Position numbers and translations under genes: made by a program | In this document: piece after piece, positions 1 through 62,660 of the stretch | How positions within the stretch are numbered: the stretch's first letter is position 1 | Layout of the letters: each line of letters begins with the position of its first letter | The notes under the pieces: model-generated | Seen by the model: the letters and a program-made list of their open reading frames with translations, nothing else | What the model was told of the DNA's origin: nothing | Database searches by the model: none | DNA from: Deltaproteobacteria bacterium | Lineage (GTDB): Bacteria; Myxococcota_A; UBA9160; SMWR01 | DNA length: 64,000 nucleotides | Assembly: GCA_032128375.1 (NCBI GenBank) | Contig: JAQBGU010000183.1 | Location: 1-64,000, forward strand | Reading direction: 5' to 3'

Positions 1-110
1 TACCGACCCAGCCGGAATATCACGCCGCGCTCGTACTCGGTGATGATCCTGACTCCGAATATGAACAGGACCGCAAGTACCCCCAATGCCACAATCAATG
101 CGAAAAACAT
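1..110 (-). CDS. Slipin/stomatin-like SPFH protein, 5' part (runs off window)
   Basis: Manual translation from ATG at 110: MFFALIVALGVLAVLFIFGVRIITEYERGVIFRLGR, with the typical slipin EYERGVIFRLGR; purine-rich RBS upstream; lies downstream of nfeD as is usual. Confidence 0.85.
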   Translation of the reverse strand, partial: MFFALIVALGVLAVLFIFGVRIITEYERGVIFRLGR

Positions 111-6947: not shown

Positions 6948-7286
6948 GTGATTTTGCACCTTCTTGCGCTCCTGACACTGGTCCTTTCGGCCGCCGACCA
7001 CTGGACAACCTACCTGTGCCTGCGAAGCCCAGTGGATGGCTGGCAGGTGACGGAAGCCAATCCGATCTCCGATTGGCTCTTTCAGGGGGTGGGTCTCGTA
7101 CCCGGCCTGGTGATCGACAGCATGGTCACAGTCATTGCCGTGTCACTTCTGTTGACGACATCGAGAGTTCCGCAATACGCAAAGGGCACGTTCTTCTGCC
7201 TGGTCGTAATGACCACCAGCTATGCGGTCATCAACAATGTTGAAGCGCTCTCCGCTCTCGGCCTGTCCCCGCTGGGACAGAGCTAG
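6948..7286 (+). CDS. Small membrane protein, DUF5658-like
   Basis: Three hydrophobic segments with D..TT and EANP pattern; GGAG next to the start. Confidence 0.65.
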   Translation: MILHLLALLTLVLSAADHWTTYLCLRSPVDGWQVTEANPISDWLFQGVGLVPGLVIDSMVTVIAVSLLLTTSRVPQYAKGTFFCLVVMTTSYAVINNVEALSALGLSPLGQS

Positions 7287-7328: not shown

Positions 7329-8093
7329 ATGCAGACAAAAAATCTCGAAAACGCGCGCCAGGAACCTGCTCGGAAAGTTGGGATTTCTGCCCAGCAGACG
7401 AGCCCTGTGAAGGATCCCACGCATCGCCGCAGCCCGAAGGCCTCGGGTTGGTCAGTCAGCGCGCTCGCGTGTCTGGCTCTTGGACTATCGTCTTTCACCC
7501 AACCCGTAAGCGAGCAATTCTCACGGTCCGATCCAACCGATCCGCACCGCGCGACGCAGGAAATTACCGCTGCTGTCCCGACACGTCACAGCTGTTCGGC
7601 TGATTCCCGGCGCGCTCCGGATCGGGATGCCGTGGCGAATGCTGTCGCGTACTTCAACGCACATCGATCGCACCTGACCAAAACAGAGATCCAACACGTC
7701 GCCGAAGTCCTGGTCGAGTGCGCGGCCCACTACGCCGTGGACCCCGAGCTGGTGATCGCAGTAATCCACATCGAGAGCCGCGGTAATCCGTTCGCAGTGT
7801 CTCCGGTGGGTGCCATGGGGCTGATGCAGGTCATGCCCGCGACCGGTGAAGAACTCGCCGCCGAGCTCGGCGTACAATGGGTCGGCTCGAAGCTGCTCTT
7901 CGAACCCGAGATCAATGTGCGGTTCGGTATCGCATACCTCCGGCAGCTCCGGCAGCGCTTCGGGGACTGGCCAACCGCGCTCGCCGCGTACAATTGGGGT
8001 CCGAACAGCATCTCTCAGAGGCTGCGCGCTGGTGTCGCTCTGCCAGTCCTGTATTCCACATCGGTTCTCCAGGCAAAGCGCAACCGTACCTAG
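7329..8093 (+). CDS. Lytic transglycosylase (SLT domain)
   Basis: IHIES, GAMGLMQVMP, ALAAYNWG motifs; N-terminal extension with a hydrophobic segment. Confidence 0.92.
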   Translation: MQTKNLENARQEPARKVGISAQQTSPVKDPTHRRSPKASGWSVSALACLALGLSSFTQPVSEQFSRSDPTDPHRATQEITAAVPTRHSCSADSRRAPDRDAVANAVAYFNAHRSHLTKTEIQHVAEVLVECAAHYAVDPELVIAVIHIESRGNPFAVSPVGAMGLMQVMPATGEELAAELGVQWVGSKLLFEPEINVRFGIAYLRQLRQRFGDWPTALAAYNWGPNSISQRLRAGVALPVLYSTSVLQAKRNRT

Positions 8094-8115
8094 CAACGGA
8101 CGGGCTTCCCAAGCG

Positions 8116-9651
8116 TCAACGCGTGAGTTCGAACGCGATCGCATCGACGGCATCCATCGCATCCGCCGCACCCTGACGAAACCCGTTGACCAGGATCGAA
8201 AACACGACCCGCTGGCCGTTGCCGTCGATTGCGTAGCCCGAAAGTGCGGTGACGCGGGTCAGCAGCCCGGTCTTGGCTCGCAGCCGCCCCTCGGCAGCTG
8301 TCGCGCGTTCTTGCAGCGTTCCATCGATGGACGCTATTGGGAGCGCCGCCTGAAACTCCGAGCCGAAATGAAACGAGTCGCTCGCTATTCGCAGCGCAGA
8401 AACCAGAGCGACCGGTGTCACGCGGTTTTCATACGAGAGGCCCGATCCATCGCTGAGCACCGCGCCAGTGAGGTCGATTCCGAGCGCGGTGAGCTCCCGG
8501 CGCATTGCCGCGATCCCGTTGGTCCATGTCCCTGAGGTTCGTTCCGTGGTGGAGACAGTCTCGGCGGGAGCTGTCTCGGCGCGACGGTTCTTTTCAAGGG
8601 TCCTGGTAGGAGGTGTATCGGTAGGAGGTGTCTCAGTAGCCAGCGACCCGGTCGAGAGCTCCGGGCTATGTCGACCCATCGCCTTCAGCAGCGTTTCACC
8701 GATCGCGTTGTTGCTGTATTTCAAAAACAAGCTGACGATCTGGGTCAGCGGAAACCCTTTGAACGACTTGACTAGCGTCATTTCGCTCCCCACCGCCCCA
8801 ACGAGCGTCTGTGCCCCGACCTCGATATGGTTGGCTTCGAGTTGCATGCGAAGCACCGAACCCGCGTAGCGAACCGGATCCAACACGCTCCGATAGTGGG
8901 TCATCGGATCACCTCCAGCACGTAGCAAGCCCGACACCACCACATCTTCGCCGACGTCGACCGCGCGGCGATCGAGAACCAAGCCGGCCTTGGCGCGGCG
9001 GTCGACTGTCCGCGCGCGATTGACCAATCGCAAGTATGCGACCGGGGGGTCGATCATCACACGCACCGGTTCACCAGCTTTGGCTCCGCTGCGAACACTG
9101 ACCCCATAGGCACCATAGTTCGCATTGAGAGCGGCAATCGGCGCGTTGTAGGCTCGAGACGAGATCACGCCCCAGGCCGAGTTCCAGAACTCGGAATCGA
9201 ACTGCGTGGCATCGAGCAGCAAACCACGCTTGATGTTTCGAATTCCCAGCACGCGCAGATCGGCCGCCAAGCGCCACCACTGCTCCGAGGTCAACGCGGG
9301 ATCTCCACCGCCGAGCACTCCGAGGACATCGATCTCGCCGTCGGGACCCGGCGCCGCATCGGCGTACAATTCAGTCACGAATCGGTGCGTGGGCCCAAAC
9401 ATCGACAGCGCCGCGAGCGCGGTCAGAATCTTCATATTCGATGCAGGAATCAACGCCCGGTCCGCATGGTGGGCAAAGCGCACCACGCCGTCGTCGAGAT
9501 TCGCGACATAGACCGCGACGCGCGCTCCCTCGAGCGCATCCGCGGCGAGCACAGCGTTCAACCGCGCCGCCAAATCGTCGGGGCGCGCGCTCACAGCTTC
9601 CACGCTCGTCATCAGCAGACAGCCGACGACTACGACCCACACCCGAAGCAT
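8116..9651 (-). CDS. dacB: D-Ala-D-Ala carboxypeptidase/endopeptidase PBP4 (peptidase S13)
   Basis: PASNMK (SxxK), SNN, DGSGLS, AKTG motifs; signal peptide. Confidence 0.93.
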   Translation of the reverse strand: MLRVWVVVVGCLLMTSVEAVSARPDDLAARLNAVLAADALEGARVAVYVANLDDGVVRFAHHADRALIPASNMKILTALAALSMFGPTHRFVTELYADAAPGPDGEIDVLGVLGGGDPALTSEQWWRLAADLRVLGIRNIKRGLLLDATQFDSEFWNSAWGVISSRAYNAPIAALNANYGAYGVSVRSGAKAGEPVRVMIDPPVAYLRLVNRARTVDRRAKAGLVLDRRAVDVGEDVVVSGLLRAGGDPMTHYRSVLDPVRYAGSVLRMQLEANHIEVGAQTLVGAVGSEMTLVKSFKGFPLTQIVSLFLKYSNNAIGETLLKAMGRHSPELSTGSLATETPPTDTPPTRTLEKNRRAETAPAETVSTTERTSGTWTNGIAAMRRELTALGIDLTGAVLSDGSGLSYENRVTPVALVSALRIASDSFHFGSEFQAALPIASIDGTLQERATAAEGRLRAKTGLLTRVTALSGYAIDGNGQRVVFSILVNGFRQGAADAMDAVDAIAFELTR

Positions 9652-9890
9652 GCATACTCCTCGAGAAATTTCGCAGACCTGCAGTCTCGGGGGGAGGCGT
9701 CGAGCAGCGCCTTTCCCAGCACGGCCGCTTGACGTCACCGAGCATATCCGGGAGCCTGCGAGCCGGCAATCGAGCGCACCGAGTTGCGCGTTCGGCGCTT
9801 TGCGGCGAATGCTTCCACGTCGTCGCCTGACCCTGTTGGATCAGGCTCCTGGGTTTCGCAAAACGATGCGGATGCCCGAGCGGGAGGAAC

Positions 9891-11207
9891 GTGCTCAACG
9901 GAATATTCGGCGCACTCATCGTGGGTGCGGTCGCGACGGCGGCCCTGACCGGCACGATGCCGGCGGTCAATCAGGCGTTGATGGATTCCGCGCGACAGGC
10001 GGTCGAACTCGCCCTGGGGCTGATCGGCACGATGGCGCTCTGGCTGGGTCTGATGCGGGTGCTGCGCGATGCCGGAGTGATGACCTCGATCGCTCGCGGT
10101 CTGGCGCCGCTGATGACGCGACTGTTCCCAGACGTTCCCGCTGAACACCCGGCGATGAGCGCGATGATCCTGAACCTGTCCGCGAACATGCTGGGGCTCG
10201 GTAACGCAGCGACACCATTCGGTCTCAAGGCGATCCGGGAACTCCAAGAACTCAACCCGAAAAAAGGGGTCGCGACCGATTCAATGGCGCTGTTCCTGGC
10301 GATCAATACCTCCGGAGTCGCGGTCATGCCGCTCGGCGTCATCGCGATGCGCGCCAGCATGAATTCCGCGAATGCGAGTTCGATCTTCCTGCCGACCGTG
10401 CTCGCAACGTTGTGCTCGACGATTACCGCGGTCGCGGTCGCGAAGCTACTGGCCAAGCGTCGGAGGTTTGCGTTCGACCAGTTCGAAGGCGATTCGGACG
10501 AGCCTGTCGAGACCGCGCTTTCCAACTCGGAGCCGAGCTTTTCTGACGATGGATTCGACGCACCGGATCACGCCACACAACCCACAGTACCCCTCTCGCG
10601 ATGGCGCCTCGGACTGCTGGCTTCATTTGGGGTACTGATCATCTGGGCGATCTTCCGAGAGATCACAGCGAATCCTGGCCAGGGGCTCAAGGAGGTCGCA
10701 AACGCCTGGTTGATGCCGATCCTCGCGGTCGTGATCATTCTCTACGGCTTCAGTGCGCGCGTGAAAATCTACGAATCTGTGATCGAGGGCGCGCGCGAGG
10801 GATTCGAGATCGTCGTGATGATCATCCCATTCCTGGTAGCGATCCTGGTCGCAGTCGGGGTGTTCCGCGCATCCGGAGCGCTCGATGCGATGCTTACGGT
10901 GATTGCGCCGGTTACAGCACTGATCGGTTTCCCGGTGGAGGCCCTGCCGATGGCGCTACTGCGCCCATTGTCTGCAGGCGGTGCGATGGGCGTCATGGTC
11001 GAGACGATGCAGGCCCACGGTCCCGACTCGTTCATCGGCTATCTATCCTCGGTCTTGATGGGAAGTACCGAGACCACCTTTTACGTGCTCGCGGTCTACT
11101 ACGGGAGCGTCCGCATTCGGATGACGCGCCACACGGTTGTCGCGTGCCTGTCGGCAGATTTCGTCGGCGCGCTGGCAGCGTTGTTCTGGTGTCGGATTTT
11201 GTATTGA
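9891..11207 (+). CDS. Fused SpmA/SpmB membrane protein (nucleoside-recognition Gate domains)
   Basis: ANMLGLGNAATPFGLKA (SpmA) and RPLS..GA, GSTETTFYVLAVYYG (SpmB). Confidence 0.9.
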   Translation: MLNGIFGALIVGAVATAALTGTMPAVNQALMDSARQAVELALGLIGTMALWLGLMRVLRDAGVMTSIARGLAPLMTRLFPDVPAEHPAMSAMILNLSANMLGLGNAATPFGLKAIRELQELNPKKGVATDSMALFLAINTSGVAVMPLGVIAMRASMNSANASSIFLPTVLATLCSTITAVAVAKLLAKRRRFAFDQFEGDSDEPVETALSNSEPSFSDDGFDAPDHATQPTVPLSRWRLGLLASFGVLIIWAIFREITANPGQGLKEVANAWLMPILAVVIILYGFSARVKIYESVIEGAREGFEIVVMIIPFLVAILVAVGVFRASGALDAMLTVIAPVTALIGFPVEALPMALLRPLSAGGAMGVMVETMQAHGPDSFIGYLSSVLMGSTETTFYVLAVYYGSVRIRMTRHTVVACLSADFVGALAALFWCRILY

Positions 11208-11247
11208 AGTGACTGTATCGAAGTGACTGAATCGAAGTGACTGAATC
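11206..11247. repeat. 14-bp tandem repeat x3
   Basis: GAAGTGACTG(T/A)ATC at 11206, 11220, 11234, beginning inside the spmAB stop codon. Confidence 0.9.
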
Positions 11248-11254
11248 GACGTAA

Positions 11255-12367
11255 ATGGCCGAGAAAATTGCAGAGCAAATGCAATCACTAGAATCTTTCG
11301 TCCGTTCCTCCGTGCAGGCAAATCTGGAAACACGGGTCATCCGAGTCGAGAAGCTGGCGGGTGCACTCGGGCGGCGACAGTTCGCCCGTGTCTGGCTTGA
11401 ATCCGACTCTGACGCAAAGCTTCCCGCCACGCTGATCGCGAGAGTCGAGGCGCCCGAAGATCCGCAGCGCCGCCCGGCCGGCATCGCCCCGGAACCCCCG
11501 CTGGAACCGATCCGCGCACTGCTCGAAGAACGGGGCCTCCCCGTGCCCCGATGCTTCGCTGCAGATCGAGACGCGGGCATCGACCTGCTGGGAGACTTCG
11601 GCGACGACTCGCTCAGTGTCGTGGCCGCAGCTTCGACCGCGAGCGAACGCGACGCGCTGTATCGAGAAGCCTGCGCTCTCGTTCCCCGGCTGCAACAGAT
11701 CGATCGGGTGCCGGGCGTCGCGGCATTCGATCGCCAACTCGACGCCGCGCAGATGGACTACAAGGCGCAACGATTCGCGCAGTGGAGCCTTCGCGCGACG
11801 GGATCTGCCGGAATCCAAGTCGTTCGGGAGGCGTTCTCTCTGATCGCGGACGAAGTCCTGGGCGCTCCACAACGGCTCGCACACCGCGATTTCCAAAGCG
11901 CCAATCTGTTCGTCATCGATGCCGGGAACGACGCGACACCGCCCACGATCCGGCGAGACAGCCGGATCGCGATGATCGATCTTCAAGGAGCGTTCATGGC
12001 CCCACCGGAATACGACCTGGTGTGCCTGCTTCGCGACTCCTACGTGGAACTGCCTGCATCGAGTGTCGCGGCACGCATCGCCGAAGTCCGGCCGCTCTTG
12101 CCCGATGCACCGGATCCCGAAACGTTCTTACATCGCTTCGATCTGTTGACGCTGACGCGCAAGGGTAAGGACCACGCCTTGTATCAATATGCCGCCGCCG
12201 AACTCGGCGATCGGCGCTACCGGAAATACCTGCCCGCCGCACACCGCGCGCTGCTAGCGGCGGCCACAAGGACCGCAGCGCGAGATCGACGTTTCGCGCT
12301 GCTCGCCGAGCTGATCACCGAGTCCGCCTCCGGTGGTGGTGATGGGGAGAAGCCGTGCGAGCCATGA
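11255..12367 (+). CDS. amgK: APH-family phosphotransferase, AmgK-like MurNAc/GlcNAc anomeric kinase
   Basis: HRDFQSANL and IDLQGA...YDLVCLLRDSY resemble AmgK motifs; overlaps a murU-like gene; divergent. Confidence 0.72.
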   Translation: MAEKIAEQMQSLESFVRSSVQANLETRVIRVEKLAGALGRRQFARVWLESDSDAKLPATLIARVEAPEDPQRRPAGIAPEPPLEPIRALLEERGLPVPRCFAADRDAGIDLLGDFGDDSLSVVAAASTASERDALYREACALVPRLQQIDRVPGVAAFDRQLDAAQMDYKAQRFAQWSLRATGSAGIQVVREAFSLIADEVLGAPQRLAHRDFQSANLFVIDAGNDATPPTIRRDSRIAMIDLQGAFMAPPEYDLVCLLRDSYVELPASSVAARIAEVRPLLPDAPDPETFLHRFDLLTLTRKGKDHALYQYAAAELGDRRYRKYLPAAHRALLAAATRTAARDRRFALLAELITESASGGGDGEKPCEP

Positions 12368-13380
12368 TCGTTGCGGCGGGTCTCGGAACCCGCCTGCGAC
12401 CCCTGACCCAGCTGCGTCCCAAGCCGATCCTGCCGGTGCGCGGAGTTCCGCTGATCGGATATACGCTGGCACTGCTGGCCCGCCATGGCGCCACCGAAGC
12501 GATCGTCAACGCGCATCATCTACCCGATCAGCTGGTCGAAACCGCCCGCAGGGTCTGCCCTGATGGTTTGGCTCTACAGTTTTCGATCGAGAACGAGTTG
12601 CTCGACACCGGTGGAGCGATTCGCCAGGTGGCCGAATTCTTGGGCGGCAGCGATCCGTGCCTGATCGTCGGCGGTGACATGTTGCTCGATGCAGACCTCA
12701 CAAAGCTCGTCGCCAGCCACCACCAGACCCGCGCGGCGTTCACGATGCTGCTCAAAGAGCACGATCCCCACGCGGAGGGGTTCGGCACCATCGGCATCGA
12801 TGGCCAGGGCTGTGTGCGGCGCATCGGCACGCGCTTCGACCTCGGGGGCGAGATAAAATCCGGGGTGTACACCTGGGCAAACGTCGTCTCGGCCCGAGCA
12901 CTCGAGACCCTGCCGGATCGCCTGGCATTCAATCATCTCGACGATTGGCTCATGCCACTGCTCGCAGACGGCGCACGTGACATTCGGGCAGTGCTCGCCG
13001 GTCCCGACGACTGCATCTGGGAACCGGTCGGAACGCCAGCCGAATACCTGGAAGCTAACTTGAATTTCCCGCCATTGTCGTATATGGACCGTGTGATCGG
13101 TGACACAACGCAATATGCGGGCGCCACCGATGATGTCATCCTGGGAGAAGGCGCGACCCTGGGCTCTGGAGTGAGCCTGCGTCGCGTGGTGGTATGGGAT
13201 GGAGAAGCAGTGACAGAGCGATTGCGGGCAAGCGACGGGGTCTTCGCTGGGGGCCGATTTCACTCGTGCGCGCCCGACCGGAGCCCAGGGGATAAGAGTT
13301 CAAATGGCTGGGCCGATGGCGAGACAGATGGCCCGCTGAATCGTACGGCTGACAACGAGCGCGACAGAGCAGACACGTGA
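12355..13380 (+). CDS. murU: Sugar-1-phosphate nucleotidyltransferase, MurU-like
   Basis: AMIVAAGLGTRLRPLT..PKP, NAHHL, LDTGG; follows amgK-like gene. Confidence 0.75.
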   Translation: MRAMIVAAGLGTRLRPLTQLRPKPILPVRGVPLIGYTLALLARHGATEAIVNAHHLPDQLVETARRVCPDGLALQFSIENELLDTGGAIRQVAEFLGGSDPCLIVGGDMLLDADLTKLVASHHQTRAAFTMLLKEHDPHAEGFGTIGIDGQGCVRRIGTRFDLGGEIKSGVYTWANVVSARALETLPDRLAFNHLDDWLMPLLADGARDIRAVLAGPDDCIWEPVGTPAEYLEANLNFPPLSYMDRVIGDTTQYAGATDDVILGEGATLGSGVSLRRVVVWDGEAVTERLRASDGVFAGGRFHSCAPDRSPGDKSSNGWADGETDGPLNRTADNERDRADT

Positions 13381-14114
13381 GCGAACTCGTGTTCGTGGGC
13401 ACCAGCGATGCTTTCGGAGCCGGTGGCCGGTGCCAATCAGCGATCCTGCTGCGCGCTGATTCGGGCAGCGCACTGTTGGATTGCGGCGTAACGACGAACA
13501 CCGGCTTGAGACAACAGGGGATCGAACGATCGGAGATCGATGCCATCTTGATCACGCATTACCACGGAGATCATTTCGGTGGAATTCCGCTCTTCCTGCT
13601 CGGCGCGCAATTCGAGGACAAGCGAACCCGGCCGCTCGTGATCGCCGGGCCGCCAGGCATTGAACTGAAGGTTCGCGAGCTCGCCGCGGCGATGGGACAT
13701 CCCATCGACGATCGCGGCGGCAATTTCGAACTCAGCTACCAGGAACTCAGCATTGGCTGCACTACATCCGTCGGCCCTGTCTCGGCGCGCGCCTTCGAAA
13801 CGAAACACGATCCAGCGTCTTTCCCCCGCGGACTGGTTGTCGAAGCGGGGAATCGGCGGATCGCCTATTCGGGCGACACGGGTTGGTTCGACGACCTGCC
13901 GCAGCAGGTTTCGGGATGCGATGTGTTCATCTGCGAGTGCACGCTGCACAAGCCCGCATACGCGTTTCACCTCGATCTCGAAACCCTCGAAGCAAAGCGC
14001 GGCGAGTTCGATTGCGGTCGAATGCTGCTGACGCATCTGGGCGCCGAGATGAGCAGGCGACGCGGCGAATTGCAAATCGAGACCGCGGATGATGGATTGA
14101 CTGTGGTTCTGTAG
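13377..14114 (+). CDS. Metallo-beta-lactamase-fold hydrolase (RNase Z/PhnP-like)
   Basis: GTSDAF, LLDCG, THYHGDH, YSGDT, LTH motifs; GTGA overlap with murU. Confidence 0.9.
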   Translation: MSELVFVGTSDAFGAGGRCQSAILLRADSGSALLDCGVTTNTGLRQQGIERSEIDAILITHYHGDHFGGIPLFLLGAQFEDKRTRPLVIAGPPGIELKVRELAAAMGHPIDDRGGNFELSYQELSIGCTTSVGPVSARAFETKHDPASFPRGLVVEAGNRRIAYSGDTGWFDDLPQQVSGCDVFICECTLHKPAYAFHLDLETLEAKRGEFDCGRMLLTHLGAEMSRRRGELQIETADDGLTVVL

Positions 14115-14185
14115 TTGTAGCTTTGGTTGTAGCTTTGGTTGTAGCTCTGGTTGTCGCTTTGCTTGCGGTTCTGGTTGCCGCTCTG
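14114..14185. repeat. 12-bp degenerate tandem repeat x6 filling a convergent gap
   Basis: GTTGTAGCTTTG x2, GTTGTAGCTCTG, GTTGTCGCTTTG, CTTGCGGTTCTG, GTTGCCGCTCTG. Confidence 0.88.
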
Positions 14186-14186
14186 G

Positions 14187-15356
14187 CTACCGCGCCTTCG
14201 CGCGCCCAAGTGAAATTTCACCCAACACGGTGGCATGACGGGCACCGGTGCAGCGGGGCAGATGATTCGGAATTCCCAGCAGTGCGTTGCGTCCCATCAG
14301 CGCAAAGGCCATGGCTTCTGCCGCTTCGGACGGGACTCCGGCGTCATCCATCGGACCGATCGAAGCGTCGGGTAATGCGCGCTGCATCGATTCCATGACC
14401 GCCCGATTTCGCACGCCCCCGCCTCCGACGAACACACGTTCCACCTTGCCGGGCAGAAAGTCGCGGCAGGCGCGGGCGATCGCTTCGGTGCTGAATGCGA
14501 CCAGCGTCGCGATCAAATCATCGAGCCCTACACCGCGATCGCGCGAGTCGGCCAGCAAGCATTCGGCCTGCTCGAGACCGTAACGCTCGCGACCGGTCGA
14601 TTTGGGTGGAGCTCGTCGCAGGAACTCGTCTTCGAGCAGGCTGTCGAGCAGCTGCCCGTCGACCCGACCGCGCATGGCCCTGGCGCCATCCCGATCGATT
14701 CGCTCGCGGCCTTCGCTGGCAAGTCGGACGACCGCATCGATCAGCGAATTGGCCGGTCCCACATCGAAGGCCGTCACCGCATCCGGGTCGCCGCCCGCCG
14801 GCAGCCAGCTGATGTTCGCGATTCCCCCAAGGTTCACAACCAAGCGGTTCTCAGCCGGGTCGCTGAGCGCTGCGTGATGAAAGAACGGCGCCAGCGGAGC
14901 ACCCTCGCCACCGGCCGCAATATCTCGAGGTCGAAAATCCGCGATCGTCGTGCACCCGGTCCGCTCTGCGATCACCGATGGATCCCCGATCTGCAGTGTG
15001 GCGCGCAGCTCCGGGTGATGGGCCACCGTCTGGCCGTGCGACGCGATCCCATCGATGCTCGCGAGCGGCACATCCGCCCGCCGTGCCAGGTCGATCGCCG
15101 CCTCGGCGAAACGCTCTCCGAGGCATACATCCAGCGCAGCCAGCTCGCGAATCGCACTGATCGGCGCCCCGTCGTCCGCGGGCGCCACGCGACCGGCCGC
15201 GAGACGGTGAATGTTTTCCTGGAGTTCGGGCGGATACGGCGTCTCACTGAATGCGATCAGCCGAAACGGTTTCGGGGCGGTATCCGAAGTCCATTCGACC
15301 AGGGCCGCATCGACCCCATCCGCGGACGTTCCGGACATCAAGCCAATGATGCGCAT
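14187..15356 (-). CDS. anmK: Anhydro-N-acetylmuramic acid kinase
   Basis: IGLMSGTSADGVD, SHGQT, GGEGAPLAP, NLGGIAN, FDVGPAN, PPKSTGRE. Confidence 0.96.
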   Translation of the reverse strand: MRIIGLMSGTSADGVDAALVEWTSDTAPKPFRLIAFSETPYPPELQENIHRLAAGRVAPADDGAPISAIRELAALDVCLGERFAEAAIDLARRADVPLASIDGIASHGQTVAHHPELRATLQIGDPSVIAERTGCTTIADFRPRDIAAGGEGAPLAPFFHHAALSDPAENRLVVNLGGIANISWLPAGGDPDAVTAFDVGPANSLIDAVVRLASEGRERIDRDGARAMRGRVDGQLLDSLLEDEFLRRAPPKSTGRERYGLEQAECLLADSRDRGVGLDDLIATLVAFSTEAIARACRDFLPGKVERVFVGGGGVRNRAVMESMQRALPDASIGPMDDAGVPSEAAEAMAFALMGRNALLGIPNHLPRCTGARHATVLGEISLGRAKAR

Positions 15357-15599
15357 GCGACCAGCTTACCCCCGATTGCTACCCAGATTGCTGAGATCGG
15401 CTATTGATTGGCCTGCGATTGGGAATGACGCTGCGATCGGGTATCCGATTCACCCCCGCTTTGGTACCCGCGAAACACCGATTCGACGGGGTTCGACGGG
15501 ATTTGACAGCAACGACCACGACCCGGAGTATTCGGGCCGCTTCGAATTCTAAAATGTGGTAAAAATGCCACGATTCAGGCAAGGGAAAATGGAGGGCGA

Positions 15600-15905
15600 A
15601 TGAACGACTCGTCGCGGACCCAAGGGGGTCTGATCTGTATCGGTGTAGTGATCGTGGGAGCGTGGTTTCTGCTCGCCGTGTTGCAGGGAAGTTATTGGGC
15701 ACTCGCCCTCCCGGTCTCGATCATCGTGTTCTTCGTGCTCGGACTGATTTTCTGGATCGGATATACGATCGCAACGATTCGGGTAGAGCCGGCCGACGAG
15801 TTCGACGAACTCGCCCCTCCACAAGCCCCAGACTCCGCCTACGACAGTGCCGCAGCCGACTCTGCAACTTCGACCGCGGGCTCAACCGGCGACACGGCCG
15901 GTTGA
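15600..15905 (+). CDS. Small two-TM hypothetical membrane protein
   Basis: Two hydrophobic helices and an acidic tail; GGAGGG RBS; first gene of the GT cluster. Confidence 0.7.
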   Translation: MNDSSRTQGGLICIGVVIVGAWFLLAVLQGSYWALALPVSIIVFFVLGLIFWIGYTIATIRVEPADEFDELAPPQAPDSAYDSAAADSATSTAGSTGDTAG

Positions 15906-15915
15906 GACCAGACCC

Positions 15916-17175
15916 ATGCGGATCGCTTTACTCACTTATCGTGGAAATATGTATTGCGGCGGCCAGGGCATCTATGCCGCCTACCTGGCGCGCGAATGGA
16001 TGCGCGCCGGCCACGACGTGCATGTCTTCGCCGGCCCGCCCCTGCCCGAACTCGAAGACGGAATTCCGCTGCACGAGATTCCGAATGACAATGTCTTCGG
16101 TGCGACGCACCCCGATTTCTTCGACCCCAACAAGAGATTCTCGCTCTTCAAACCGATGAGCTTGTGGGAACTCGGCGTATCTCGCCTCGGCGTGTTTCCC
16201 GAAATGCAGACCTTCGGCGTACGACTGATGATGCGTTGGCCGCGTCTGCAGGAGCGCCACCGCTTCGATATCGTGTTCGACAATCAATGCCTCAGTTGGG
16301 GGCTGCTCGGCATCAAGGCGATGGGCGTGCCCGTGGTCTCGGTGATCCATCACCCGCTCCACATCGATCGCGAAGCCGATTACTCGATCGATCGCCGGCT
16401 TTCGAAGAAGATCAAGCGCACGCTGTACTTTCCGCTCTTCATGCAGCAGCAGGTCGCACCGCGCCTCGACAAGATCGTAACCGTCAGCGAGGCGTCGCGC
16501 GTCGAGATCGAGCGCTACTTCGGAATCCCTCAGAAAAACATTTCGGTCGTATACAACGGTACCGACACCGAAATATTTCATCCCGTGGACGAAGTCGAAA
16601 AGGAAACCGATCTCCTGTTCGTCGGCCGAACAGAAGATCGCAAAAAAGGCATCGGAACCCTGCTCGAAGCACTGGGCATGCTGCCGAAGTCGATCCGACT
16701 GAAGATCGTAGACGGACGCATTCCGCCTGACGGTTTGGTTCCCAATCTGATCCGGCGATACCATCTCGAAGGCCGTGTGAAGATCATCGACGAGATGCTC
16801 AAACTCGATGACCTCGTCGCGCAGTACTCGAGCGCACGCATTGCGCTGGTCCCGTCGTTCTTCGAGGGTTTTGGCTTCCCGGCCAGCGAGGCAATGGCCT
16901 GCGGGCTGCCCGTCATTGCCAACGCGGCGGGTGCACTGCCGGAGGTGGTCGGCACCGACGGACAGTCCGGTATTCTCGTCCCGCCCCGCGACGCCCGCGC
17001 GATGGCAGCAGCGATCGCCAAGGTGCTCGCGGAACCGGGCCTCGCCGAACGAATGGGACGCAGCGCGCGCTGCCGGATTCAGCGCGTGTTCAAATGGAGC
17101 GACGCCGCGGCCGGGCTGGTGGACGTGTTCGAGGAGACGCTGCATGCTGCTCACCGTCGACCTCGAGCGGCTTAG
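15916..17175 (+). CDS. Glycosyltransferase family 4
   Basis: MRIALLTYRGNMYCGGQGIY N-terminus; EGFGFPASEAMACG. Confidence 0.92.
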   Translation: MRIALLTYRGNMYCGGQGIYAAYLAREWMRAGHDVHVFAGPPLPELEDGIPLHEIPNDNVFGATHPDFFDPNKRFSLFKPMSLWELGVSRLGVFPEMQTFGVRLMMRWPRLQERHRFDIVFDNQCLSWGLLGIKAMGVPVVSVIHHPLHIDREADYSIDRRLSKKIKRTLYFPLFMQQQVAPRLDKIVTVSEASRVEIERYFGIPQKNISVVYNGTDTEIFHPVDEVEKETDLLFVGRTEDRKKGIGTLLEALGMLPKSIRLKIVDGRIPPDGLVPNLIRRYHLEGRVKIIDEMLKLDDLVAQYSSARIALVPSFFEGFGFPASEAMACGLPVIANAAGALPEVVGTDGQSGILVPPRDARAMAAAIAKVLAEPGLAERMGRSARCRIQRVFKWSDAAAGLVDVFEETLHAAHRRPRAA

Positions 17176-17866
17176 GCTTCGCCCCGGCGAGCGACTCCTC
17201 GACGCGGGATGCGGCGAGGGGCGCCACTGTTTCGGTGCGCTCGAACGCGGCGCGCGAGTCGTGGGTCTCGATCTCGATCGCGGCTCGCTGAAGATGGGGT
17301 CCGGTGCGCTGCGCAGCCGCGCCACGGAACTCGGCTCGTTCGGGGCAATGATTCACGGTAATACCTTTGCGCTGCCGTTTGCCGATGAAAGCTTCCACAA
17401 GGTCATCTGCTCCGAAGTCATGGAGCACGTCCATGACTACCGCGCAGCTGCGCGCGAACTCGCGCGCGTGACCCGCCGCGGCGGGATGGTGGCTGTCACG
17501 ATTCCGACAGCGACCAGCGAGAATCTCTACCTTCGCGTCGGAGACGACTACTTCGAGTCGCCAGGCGGCCACATCCGCATCTTCCGGCCGCGACAACTCG
17601 CACTCGGGCTCGCTGAAGCCGGACTCGCCACCGTCGGCGTCGGGTTCGCGCACGCCCTTCACACCCCGTACTGGGTGCTGCGTTCGATCGCCGGCCTACC
17701 CAAGGCCGACGCATCCGCGCTCGTCCGCGGATACCGGCTGCTGTTGCTCCGCGCAACAGGGTCGCGGTTCATGACAGCCGTGGAACGGATGCTCAACTAC
17801 TGCTTTCCGAAGAGCCTGATCCTGTACGCGGAGAAGCGAGACAACGCCTCCGTGCCAGCTCACTGA
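17144..17866 (+). CDS. Class I SAM-dependent methyltransferase
   Basis: LLDAGCGEGRH, LPFADESF, SEVMEHV; ATG at 17144 after GAGGAG. Confidence 0.9.
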   Translation: MLLTVDLERLRLRPGERLLDAGCGEGRHCFGALERGARVVGLDLDRGSLKMGSGALRSRATELGSFGAMIHGNTFALPFADESFHKVICSEVMEHVHDYRAAARELARVTRRGGMVAVTIPTATSENLYLRVGDDYFESPGGHIRIFRPRQLALGLAEAGLATVGVGFAHALHTPYWVLRSIAGLPKADASALVRGYRLLLLRATGSRFMTAVERMLNYCFPKSLILYAEKRDNASVPAH

Positions 17867-49954: not shown

Positions 49955-50041
49955 GCCCGGGTGGCGGAATTGGTAGACGCGCTAGGTTCAGGGCCTAGTA
50001 TTCGCAAGGATGTGCTGGTTCGACTCCAGTCCCGGGCACCA
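49955..50041 (+). tRNA. tRNA-Leu(CAG)
   Basis: Acceptor GCCCGGG/CCCGGGC, anticodon stem CTAGG-TTCAGGG-CCTAG, long variable arm, GGTTCGACT, CCA. Confidence 0.96.
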
Positions 50042-62572: not shown

Positions 62573-62660
62573 GCGGCAGTGGCGGAATCTGGTAGACGCA
62601 CCAGCTTGAGGGGCTGGCGGGGGCAACCTCGTGGAGGTTCGAATCCTCTCTGCCGCACCA
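62573..62660 (+). tRNA. tRNA-Leu(GAG)
   Basis: Acceptor GCGGCAG/CTGCCGC, CCAGC-TTGAGGG-GCTGG, GGTTCGAAT, CCA; classic position after secG. Confidence 0.96.

Follow-up and report, generated by a model that had tools for sequence, protein, structure and literature searches.

A metallo-β-lactamase-fold hydrolase gene kept in an AmgK/MurU-like operon opposite anmK in an uncultured class of Myxococcota: a candidate accessory enzyme of cell-wall recycling

Introduction

What does a metallo-β-lactamase (MBL)-fold hydrolase do when its gene is embedded among genes resembling those for the salvage of N-acetylmuramic acid (MurNAc)? The question is raised by a locus in a 64,000-nucleotide stretch of DNA from an uncultured member of the Myxococcota (positions 1 to 64,000 of contig JAQBGU010000183.1, assembly GCA_032128375.1; hereafter the window). 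Here the genes of an AmgK-like sugar kinase, a MurU-like nucleotidyltransferase (NTase) and the MBL protein converge on anmK, the gene of anhydro-N-acetylmuramic acid kinase. An earlier reading of the window, made without database searches (the sequence-only reading), had proposed that the MBL protein dephosphorylates MurNAc 6-phosphate (MurNAc-6P), a step catalysed in Pseudomonas by the haloacid dehalogenase (HAD)-type phosphatase MupP. We conclude, with a probability of about 0.6, that the MBL protein is an accessory hydrolase of an anhydro-muropeptide recycling locus; which reaction it might catalyse is weighed below.

The window is part of a metagenome-assembled genome (MAG; G000, contig C183) of 249 contigs, 91% complete and with 2.9% contamination. 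Gene order was examined in the ±1.5-kb loci of 29 relatives, in the best 80 of at least 516 loci from a scan of public genomes (35 with at least 52% identity and 45 from other phyla) and in a 201-genome sample of the phylum. The latter includes 32 genomes of the same order, five of the sister family f13 and 163 of the rest of the phylum; G000 is not counted in the group comparison (table 1). The three sets partly overlap, and related genomes in them are not independent. Published work is cited from excerpts of the papers.

The kinase–NTase–MBL operon

The four open reading frames (ORFs) lie at exactly the bounds given by the sequence-only reading, and ORF bounds and protein families agree with the layout that it described: kinase, NTase and MBL genes overlap in one plus-strand operon (positions 11255–14114), and anmK is convergent with it (coordinates in table 2). 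The kinase and NTase ORFs overlap by 13 nucleotides (nt), an alternative ATG at 12364 giving an ATGA overlap instead, and the NTase and MBL ORFs by 4 nt (GTGA). The MBL gene and anmK stand tail to tail, separated by a 72-nt spacer of 12-nt tandem repeats. We infer that the genes of the operon are co-transcribed. Scans of positions 8000–16500 and 9500–15900 for Rfam families, promoters and terminators gave nothing over background.

The identity of AnmK is secure, with 401.5 bits against a cut-off of 387 for model NF007148. The kinase matches Pfam APH (38.7 bits), and its sole NCBIfam matches are the two AmgK models, both at scores below equivalog level (46.5 bits against 550 for NF045759 and 44.9 bits against 500 for NF045698). 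It is the only AmgK match in the genome of the window; among 14 control genomes, matches were found in two (Caulobacter and B. thetaiotaomicron). Its gene also shows the arrangement expected of amgK, that of an APH-fold kinase gene adjoining a MurU-type NTase gene. A profile built from 24 myxococcotal kinases matches the Protein Data Bank (PDB) entry 3csv at 143 bits, the next APH structure following at 24 bits; 3csv is, as we take it, an alphaproteobacterial AmgK-type protein. The closest solved relative of the NTase is MurU of P. putida (4y7t, 80.3 bits). Its score with the MurU equivalog model NF045761 is 103.3 bits against 250, covering residues 1–142 only of a protein of 341 amino acids (aa) where about 225 would be expected; with the mannose-1-phosphate guanylyltransferase model it reaches 106 bits against 440. 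Since both proteins score far below the family cut-offs, their assignment as AmgK-like and MurU-like is probable and not proven.

The operon is a variant of the known AmgK–MurU/AnmK recycling loci. As in the salvage systems of Pseudomonas, Caulobacter and Tannerella, an APH-fold kinase is encoded beside an NTP-transferase whose nearest solved relative is MurU; further likenesses are that the locus faces anmK and is flanked by a gene for a D-Ala-D-Ala carboxypeptidase/endopeptidase of the PBP4 type. It differs from those systems in the low scores of both proteins, in the length of the NTase (about 225–230 aa in MurU), and in the addition of the MBL gene and of a gene for a membrane protein with Gate (nucleoside-recognition) domains. 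In this order the operon begins with the Gate gene, which is kept 5′ of the kinase gene across the order and is absent in f13. Its product is a candidate transporter, and may be an importer feeding the kinase.

A phosphocholine system of the LicA/LicC/Pce type, which likewise joins a kinase, a cytidylyltransferase and an MBL-fold esterase, was considered and rejected: the kinase matches AmgK only, the NTase is nearest to MurU, and the MBL protein has, by eye, no leader.

Conservation of the linkage

The sequence of kinase, NTase and MBL genes is found in 27 of the 29 loci of relatives. The NTase gene precedes the MBL gene in 28 of them, and a convergent anmK is present in 25; the exceptions are loci at contig ends, one that lacks the kinase and two that lack anmK. 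The same three genes stand together in 29 of the 35 myxococcotal loci with at least 52% identity among the best 80 of at least 516; two others lack the kinase, two begin at the MBL gene and two (L057 and L078) have the MBL gene in another context. Such recurrence is far beyond chance.

In the co-occurrence analysis that the sequence-only reading had called for (table 1), the linkage is conserved across the whole class, that is, the order together with f13. Adjacent kinase and MBL genes are on the same strand, at a distance of about 1 kb. The exceptions in the order are G002 (contig end), G018, G038 and G143. The f13 kinases are only 27–31% identical and the f13 MBL proteins about 40%, and the position is kept. 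In the rest of the phylum, the eight genomes with both genes never carry them on the same contig.

Table 1. MBL and kinase homologues in the phylum sample (number of genomes).
Group	Genomes	MBL	Kinase	Both	Adjacent
Same order	32	31	30	29	28
Sister family f13	5	5	5	5	5
Rest of phylum	163	24	79	8	0

Kinase homologues were counted in 115 of the 201 genomes, a number that is inflated: an adjacent NTase gene is present in only 11 of 20 kinase loci sampled outside the class, and two adjoin a gene for a LysM/Peptidase_M74 murein endopeptidase. The kinase–NTase pair is widespread in the phylum. MBL homologues adjoining the kinase occur in this sample only in the class. Replacement of the MBL gene by a HAD gene at the same position was tried as an explanation and rejected, no HAD or MBL neighbour being found in the 20 outside loci (64 of 124 ORFs, the nearest neighbours, were scanned).

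From 128 extracted MBL sequences, 58 were picked for spread and placed in a quick IQ-TREE phylogeny. A single clade (SH-aLRT 96) holds all linked copies from the order and f13. Four second copies that are unlinked and come from genomes of this class (L130, L132, L134 and L165) group with the generic type seen in other Myxococcota, in Chloroflexota and in Alphaproteobacteria. The linked MBL is thus a specialised lineage and more than a local copy of a housekeeping gene. Residues that separate the linked clade from the generic type, for example G169 (E in the latter), R26 and T40, are not interpretable without a substrate complex.

Fold and nearest relatives of the MBL protein

The MBL protein is, from its sequence and predicted structure, an arm-less RNase Z-like phosphoesterase with a putative di-metal centre. 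The metal ligands H61, H63, D65, H66, H144, D167 and H220, which make up the HxHxDH motif and the distal His and Asp residues of RNase Z, are invariant in 55 sequences, as are G8, D11, A12, R83, W170, E187 and H198. The protein reads as cytoplasmic; by eye, it has no leader, and its N-terminus leads directly into a conserved GTSDAFG motif. None of the curated family cut-offs is reached. The AlphaFold (AF2) model has a pLDDT of 95.9, and its top Foldseek neighbours in the PDB are B. anthracis BA1088 (1zkp), B. subtilis YhfI (6kns/6knt) and Apyc1 (7u2r/7u2s), with TM-scores of 0.77–0.81 and 20–24% identity; ELAC1 and RNase Z come next, followed by an arylsulfatase, PqqB, PhnP and a ‘diphosphatase from the PhnP family’. 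When the family profile is compared with PDB sequences, B. subtilis RNase Z (1y44) ranks highest at 121.8 bits, ahead of BA1088 (102.7) and YhfI (88.5). The sequence-only reading had called the protein ‘RNase Z/PhnP-like’; the PhnP model TIGR03307 gives only 25.8 bits against a cut-off of 272.25, and PhnP has Foldseek rank 23 (TM-score 0.71).

Could the protein simply be an RNase Z/BN-like RNA 3′-end nuclease without any role in cell-wall recycling? Its sequence-profile similarity is highest to this family (ELAC), the matching parts aligning throughout, and it is the best match to the RNase Z model TIGR02651 in a genome-wide search (78.2 bits); the Joint Genome Institute (JGI) annotation labels relatives ‘ribonuclease BN’. 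The invariant residues E187 (ECT) and H198 (FHL) are presumably the counterparts of the RNase Z ‘HEAT’ and ‘HST’ motifs. However, the match to 1y44 falls into two stretches, split at query positions 156/159, that skip chain residues ~151–202, the flexible arm that holds the tRNA. The protein of only 245 aa thus lacks the exosite, and its score with TIGR02651 is 100.8 bits against 292.95. Moreover, 41 of the 46 predicted tRNA genes of the genome already encode CCA, and a better RNase Z candidate is encoded on contig C222 (NF000806, 201.8 bits over the full length, itself under the cut-off of 363). The MBL protein is probably not a tRNA-processing enzyme, and we consider this explanation quite improbable.

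A weightier alternative is that it is a general cytoplasmic small-molecule phosphodiesterase of the YhfI/Rv1339/CpdA type, acting on 3′,5′- or 2′,3′-cyclic nucleotides and having no direct role in muramic acid metabolism, its position then reflecting synteny or loose co-regulation. The three top structural neighbours fit this, as does the best full-length NCBIfam match, to the cyclic-nucleotide-degrading phosphodiesterase model NF041851 (69.4 bits, residues 4–221). The motif THYHGDH at residues 60–66 and the arm-less architecture of about 245 aa with all metal ligands are those of the ‘atypical class II PDEs’ (phosphodiesterases) Rv1339, YhfI and CpdA, whose signature is [T/S]HXHXDH according to the excerpts of PMC9293780; cyclic-nucleotide hydrolysis is reported for these three and for Apyc1 (PMC9293780, PMC9117128). 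Set against this, the scores are far below the cut-offs (69.4 bits against 400 for NF041851, and 38.8 against 50 for Pfam Apyc1, PF23023), identity to the solved phosphodiesterases is only 20–24%, and the family profile is nearer to RNase Z than to YhfI. The linked copies, which unlike these enzymes are encoded in a cell-wall sugar operon, branch separately from the generic paralogues that these genomes also carry, and they have held their position even where the kinase is only about 30% identical. We regard such an unrelated cyclic-nucleotide or small-diester phosphodiesterase as a less than probable explanation that is nearly as likely as a MurNAc-6P phosphatase.

The fold itself argues for diester substrates. 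Two neighbours carry entry titles of monoester type, namely an arylsulfatase (8gyg; Foldseek E-value 6e-17, 93.7 bits by profile) and a diphosphatase (6b9v), and these titles alone suggest a precedent for monoester hydrolysis.

The MurNAc-6P step in the genome

The genome search for mupP found no orthologue: the best HAD proteins score 78.9 and 46.5 bits in one search and 76.8 and 47.3 bits in another, against a cut-off of 359 for NF009696. Failing this model is weak evidence, because none of the 14 control genomes, Caulobacter among them, has a protein that passes it. Next to the two best HAD candidates lie no cell-wall genes but genes for a luciferase-like monooxygenase, a UDG-family protein and a short-chain dehydrogenase. 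The MBL protein itself has no HAD match in Pfam or NCBIfam and shows neither the fold nor the score of MupP. The best phosphoglycolate-phosphatase-like HAD of the genome (C61:39020–39634; L001 1489–2823, minus strand) is an apparent fusion to an N-terminal Nudix domain in a 444-aa ORF.

The corresponding search for murQ gave the opposite outcome, and with it the claim that MurNAc-6P dephosphorylation is the only missing step fell. MurQ is encoded on contig C168 (144–983, of L009), with 317.5 bits against a cut-off of 168 for NF003915 and 292.4 against 255 for NF009222 (above), and 276.4 against 302 for TIGR00274 (below); it also exceeds its cut-off in 53 of 61 class genomes. MurNAc-6P, the product of AnmK, therefore has its normal outlet and no dead end, and strictly the pathway lacks no step. 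An E. coli K-12 strain devoid of murQ accumulates MurNAc-6P (PMC5371407). Contig C78 also carries, at one end (6–104, minus strand), a 38-aa MurQ-like fragment that may be a second murQ copy or contamination. In beta- and gammaproteobacteria either MurQ or AmgK–MurU is present, according to the excerpts of PMC5371407; this genome has MurQ alongside its AmgK/MurU-like pair. Both branches are likewise found in Tannerella (PMC7670621).

Genes for AmpG-like (251 bits) and NagZ-like (266 bits) proteins are present in the genome; NamZ was searched for there and not found, which leaves free MurNAc without another evident source. The AmgK-type kinase could obtain free MurNAc by import, as in Tannerella, or from a phosphatase; or it could mainly use N-acetylglucosamine (GlcNAc).

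In the phylum sample, AnmK occurs in 37 of the 38 class genomes (G000 included) and in 4 of the 163 others, and MurQ in 31 and 1, respectively. With AnmK (these four genomes apart) and the linked MBL confined to the class, the MBL gene joins the kinase–NTase pair in the very lineage that makes MurNAc-6P. The joint presence of AnmK, MurQ and the linked MBL in this class is what the MurNAc-6P idea predicts, yet it is a single event. Seven class genomes have no MurQ match; all of them keep MBL and kinase, and six have AnmK. The sole class genome without MBL, G018, has MurQ. From the counts, chance alone would give about 0.2 double losses of MBL and MurQ; the pattern thus fits the phosphatase idea and proves nothing.

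Two genomes of family f35 (G076 and G098) have AnmK and a kinase homologue; MurQ and MBL were not found in them. In both, a gene for a 160-aa KdsC-like HAD protein overlaps the 5′ end of anmK (L168 5642–6124 and L169 5645–6127, minus strand) and a PfkB sugar kinase gene follows. It scores 90.8 bits against 208 for KdsC (NF007019) and is the sole KdsC-like gene of these genomes. Judged by sequence, it may be a plain KdsC, or a phosphatase partner of AnmK, that is, a MurNAc-6P phosphatase of another fold. In the only other MurQ-positive genome of the phylum sample (G159, locus L171, C14:189218–191339), anmK and murQ are adjacent, in E. coli style, and no kinase or MBL homologue is present.

Possible role of the MBL protein

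We infer both a link between the MBL protein and the recycling pathway and its substrate. Encoded by the last, translationally coupled gene of an operon of gate, AmgK-like and MurU-like genes facing anmK, the protein would hydrolyse the AnmK product MurNAc-6P to free MurNAc, which the AmgK-like kinase and the MurU-like transferase would turn into UDP-MurNAc. The result would be an anabolic branch competing with MurQ, in which the MBL protein takes the place of MupP between AnmK and AmgK/MurU, the two enzymes having unrelated folds. MurNAc-6P dephosphorylation is favoured because it is the only known hydrolytic gap in the recycling locus, and a MurNAc-6P phosphatase is the leading single candidate among the predicted reactions, if a tentative one. 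It is slightly more doubtful that the linked clade was recruited as a MurNAc-6P phosphatase replacing MupP, which would put the whole anabolic MurNAc shortcut into one locus and set the split between UDP-MurNAc reuse and MurQ catabolism in this uncultured class.

The proposal that the MBL protein supplies the MurNAc-6P step is thus partly supported, by the class-wide linkage, the separate clade, the co-distribution with AnmK and the failure to find MupP. Several observations weigh against it, beginning with the MurQ outlet, the scores of the AmgK-like and MurU-like proteins below their family cut-offs and the characterised arm-less relatives (YhfI, Rv1339, CpdA and Apyc1), which hydrolyse cyclic nucleotides, Rv1339 showing no hydrolysis of AMP or UMP. 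Any of ten HAD-type matches in the genome could supply a MupP-like activity. The whole 12-kb block from the PBP4 gene to the second glycosyltransferase gene has kept its synteny throughout the class. The linkage, which traces to one evolutionary event, may therefore be inherited position, and a conserved position is in itself weak evidence. Genome G018 (96% complete) keeps pbp4, gate, kinase, NTase and anmK, together with MurQ, and has lost the MBL gene with its neighbours intact. No remnant of the gene was detected there (tblastn E-value 1.8 at best), tandem repeats and a hairpin lying between the NTase gene and anmK. Conversely, G038, L071 and L077 retain gate, NTase, MBL and anmK genes without the kinase. 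In the rearranged G143 the MBL gene remains beside anmK, which speaks for the phosphatase, but the break falls between the NTase and MBL genes. Finally, the 45 homologues from other phyla among the best 80 of at least 516 loci (37–43% identity; from Bradyrhizobium, Rhodopseudomonas, Novosphingobium, Ekhidna, Planctomycetota, Chloroflexota and Binatia) have no kinase or NTase neighbour, and their contexts vary (dihydroorotate dehydrogenase, MatE, DNA ligase and methylmalonyl-CoA mutase genes). These unrelated contexts, the synteny of the entire block and the loss in G018 count at the same time for the phosphodiesterase.

The repeats at the MBL-less site of G018 (L124, about 7000–7130) have, by eye, a unit of ~27–28 nt in roughly five copies, longer than that of the spacer repeats of the window. 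In locus L090 (3769–6729), from an alphaproteobacterial MAG, anmK, a gene for a Bmp/PnrA-like binding protein and an MBL gene of the generic type stand in a row on one strand; anmK is 1.2 kb upstream of the MBL gene, the only such case in the 45 loci outside the class.

The MBL protein might instead serve the locus by another reaction, such as hydrolysis of an amino-sugar intermediate that is phosphorylated or linked to a nucleotide (UDP-MurNAc, UDP-GlcNAc or a sugar 1-phosphate) to control the salvage pool, or processing of a compound imported by the Gate protein. The evidence from linkage and clade applies equally to this explanation, phosphodiester or anhydride chemistry suits the fold better than monoesterase activity, and the operon opens with a nucleoside-recognition membrane protein. 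On the other hand, f13 retains the MBL gene without the Gate gene, and the excerpts of PMC5371407, PMC13691567 and PMC7670621 give no such step in either recycling route. Cell-free extracts of M. smegmatis expressing Rv1339 had no activity on ATP, ADP, AMP and UMP in the assays excerpted from PMC9293780. We consider another reaction of this kind improbable, and prefer MurNAc-6P dephosphorylation.

If the MBL protein is a MurNAc-6P phosphatase, it would represent new chemistry for the RNase Z-like branch, a monoester being cleaved instead of a diester, and a second solution to the step that controls intrinsic fosfomycin resistance in Pseudomonas (PMC5371407, in excerpt). It would also provide a marker to predict anabolic cell-wall recycling outside Proteobacteria. 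In the excerpts returned by full-text literature searches (MupP/AmgK/MurU; MurNAc-6P phosphatase, 2018 onward; AmgK in Myxococc-), the HAD enzyme MupP was the only one described for this step, and no MBL-type enzyme was. If the MBL protein is not such a phosphatase, AnmK, MurQ and an AmgK/MurU-like pair still coexist in one lineage, unlike the alternative of beta- and gammaproteobacteria.

Neighbouring genes and other features

The features of the locus and its surroundings are listed in table 2. The PBP4 protein passes the family model TIGR00666 (235 bits against 107.8); its gene is divergent from the operon and syntenic in the relatives. Its position next to the Gate gene presumably resembles the dacB–spmA–spmB arrangement of Bacillus.

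Table 2. Features of the kinase–NTase–MBL locus and its surroundings in the window.
Position	Strand	Feature	Basis
8116..9738	-	PBP4/DacB-type D-Ala-D-Ala carboxypeptidase/endopeptidase	Pfam Peptidase_S13, 302.7 bits
9891..11207	+	Membrane protein with two Gate (nucleoside-recognition) domains, 438 aa	Pfam Gate, 73.2 bits, 2 stretches
11206..11249		14-nt tandem repeat, 3.1 copies, in the gate–kinase spacer	Tandem Repeats Finder (TRF), score 81
11255..12367	+	APH-fold anomeric sugar kinase, probably AmgK-like, 370 aa	Pfam APH; AmgK NCBIfam models below cut-off
12355..13380	+	Sugar-1-phosphate nucleotidyltransferase, probably MurU-like but longer, 341 aa	Pfam NTP_transferase, 100 bits
13377..14114	+	Predicted arm-less RNase Z-like MBL-fold di-metal phosphoesterase, 245 aa	Lactamase_B_2, 69 bits; fold; ligands
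14114..14186		12-nt tandem repeat, ~6 copies, filling the MBL–anmK spacer	TRF
14187..15356	-	Anhydro-N-acetylmuramic acid kinase AnmK, 389 aa, convergent on the operon	Pfam AnmK (PF03702), 336.6 bits
15847..19223	+	GT4 glycosyltransferase, methyltransferase, second GT4 glycosyltransferase	Pfam; syntenic with the block across the class

As listed, the ORFs of the first GT4 glycosyltransferase (15847–17175) and of the methyltransferase (16808–17866) overlap by 368 nt. The true start of the methyltransferase is probably further downstream than 16808, because its domain begins near residue 117. A minus-strand ORF of 465 aa in the same region (15928–17325) matches no family and is probably a shadow ORF. 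The window also contains two tRNA-Leu genes (49955–50041 and 62573–62660). Elsewhere in the genome, a tRNA-SeC gene lies on contig C163 (7753–7851), and the genome probably uses selenocysteine.

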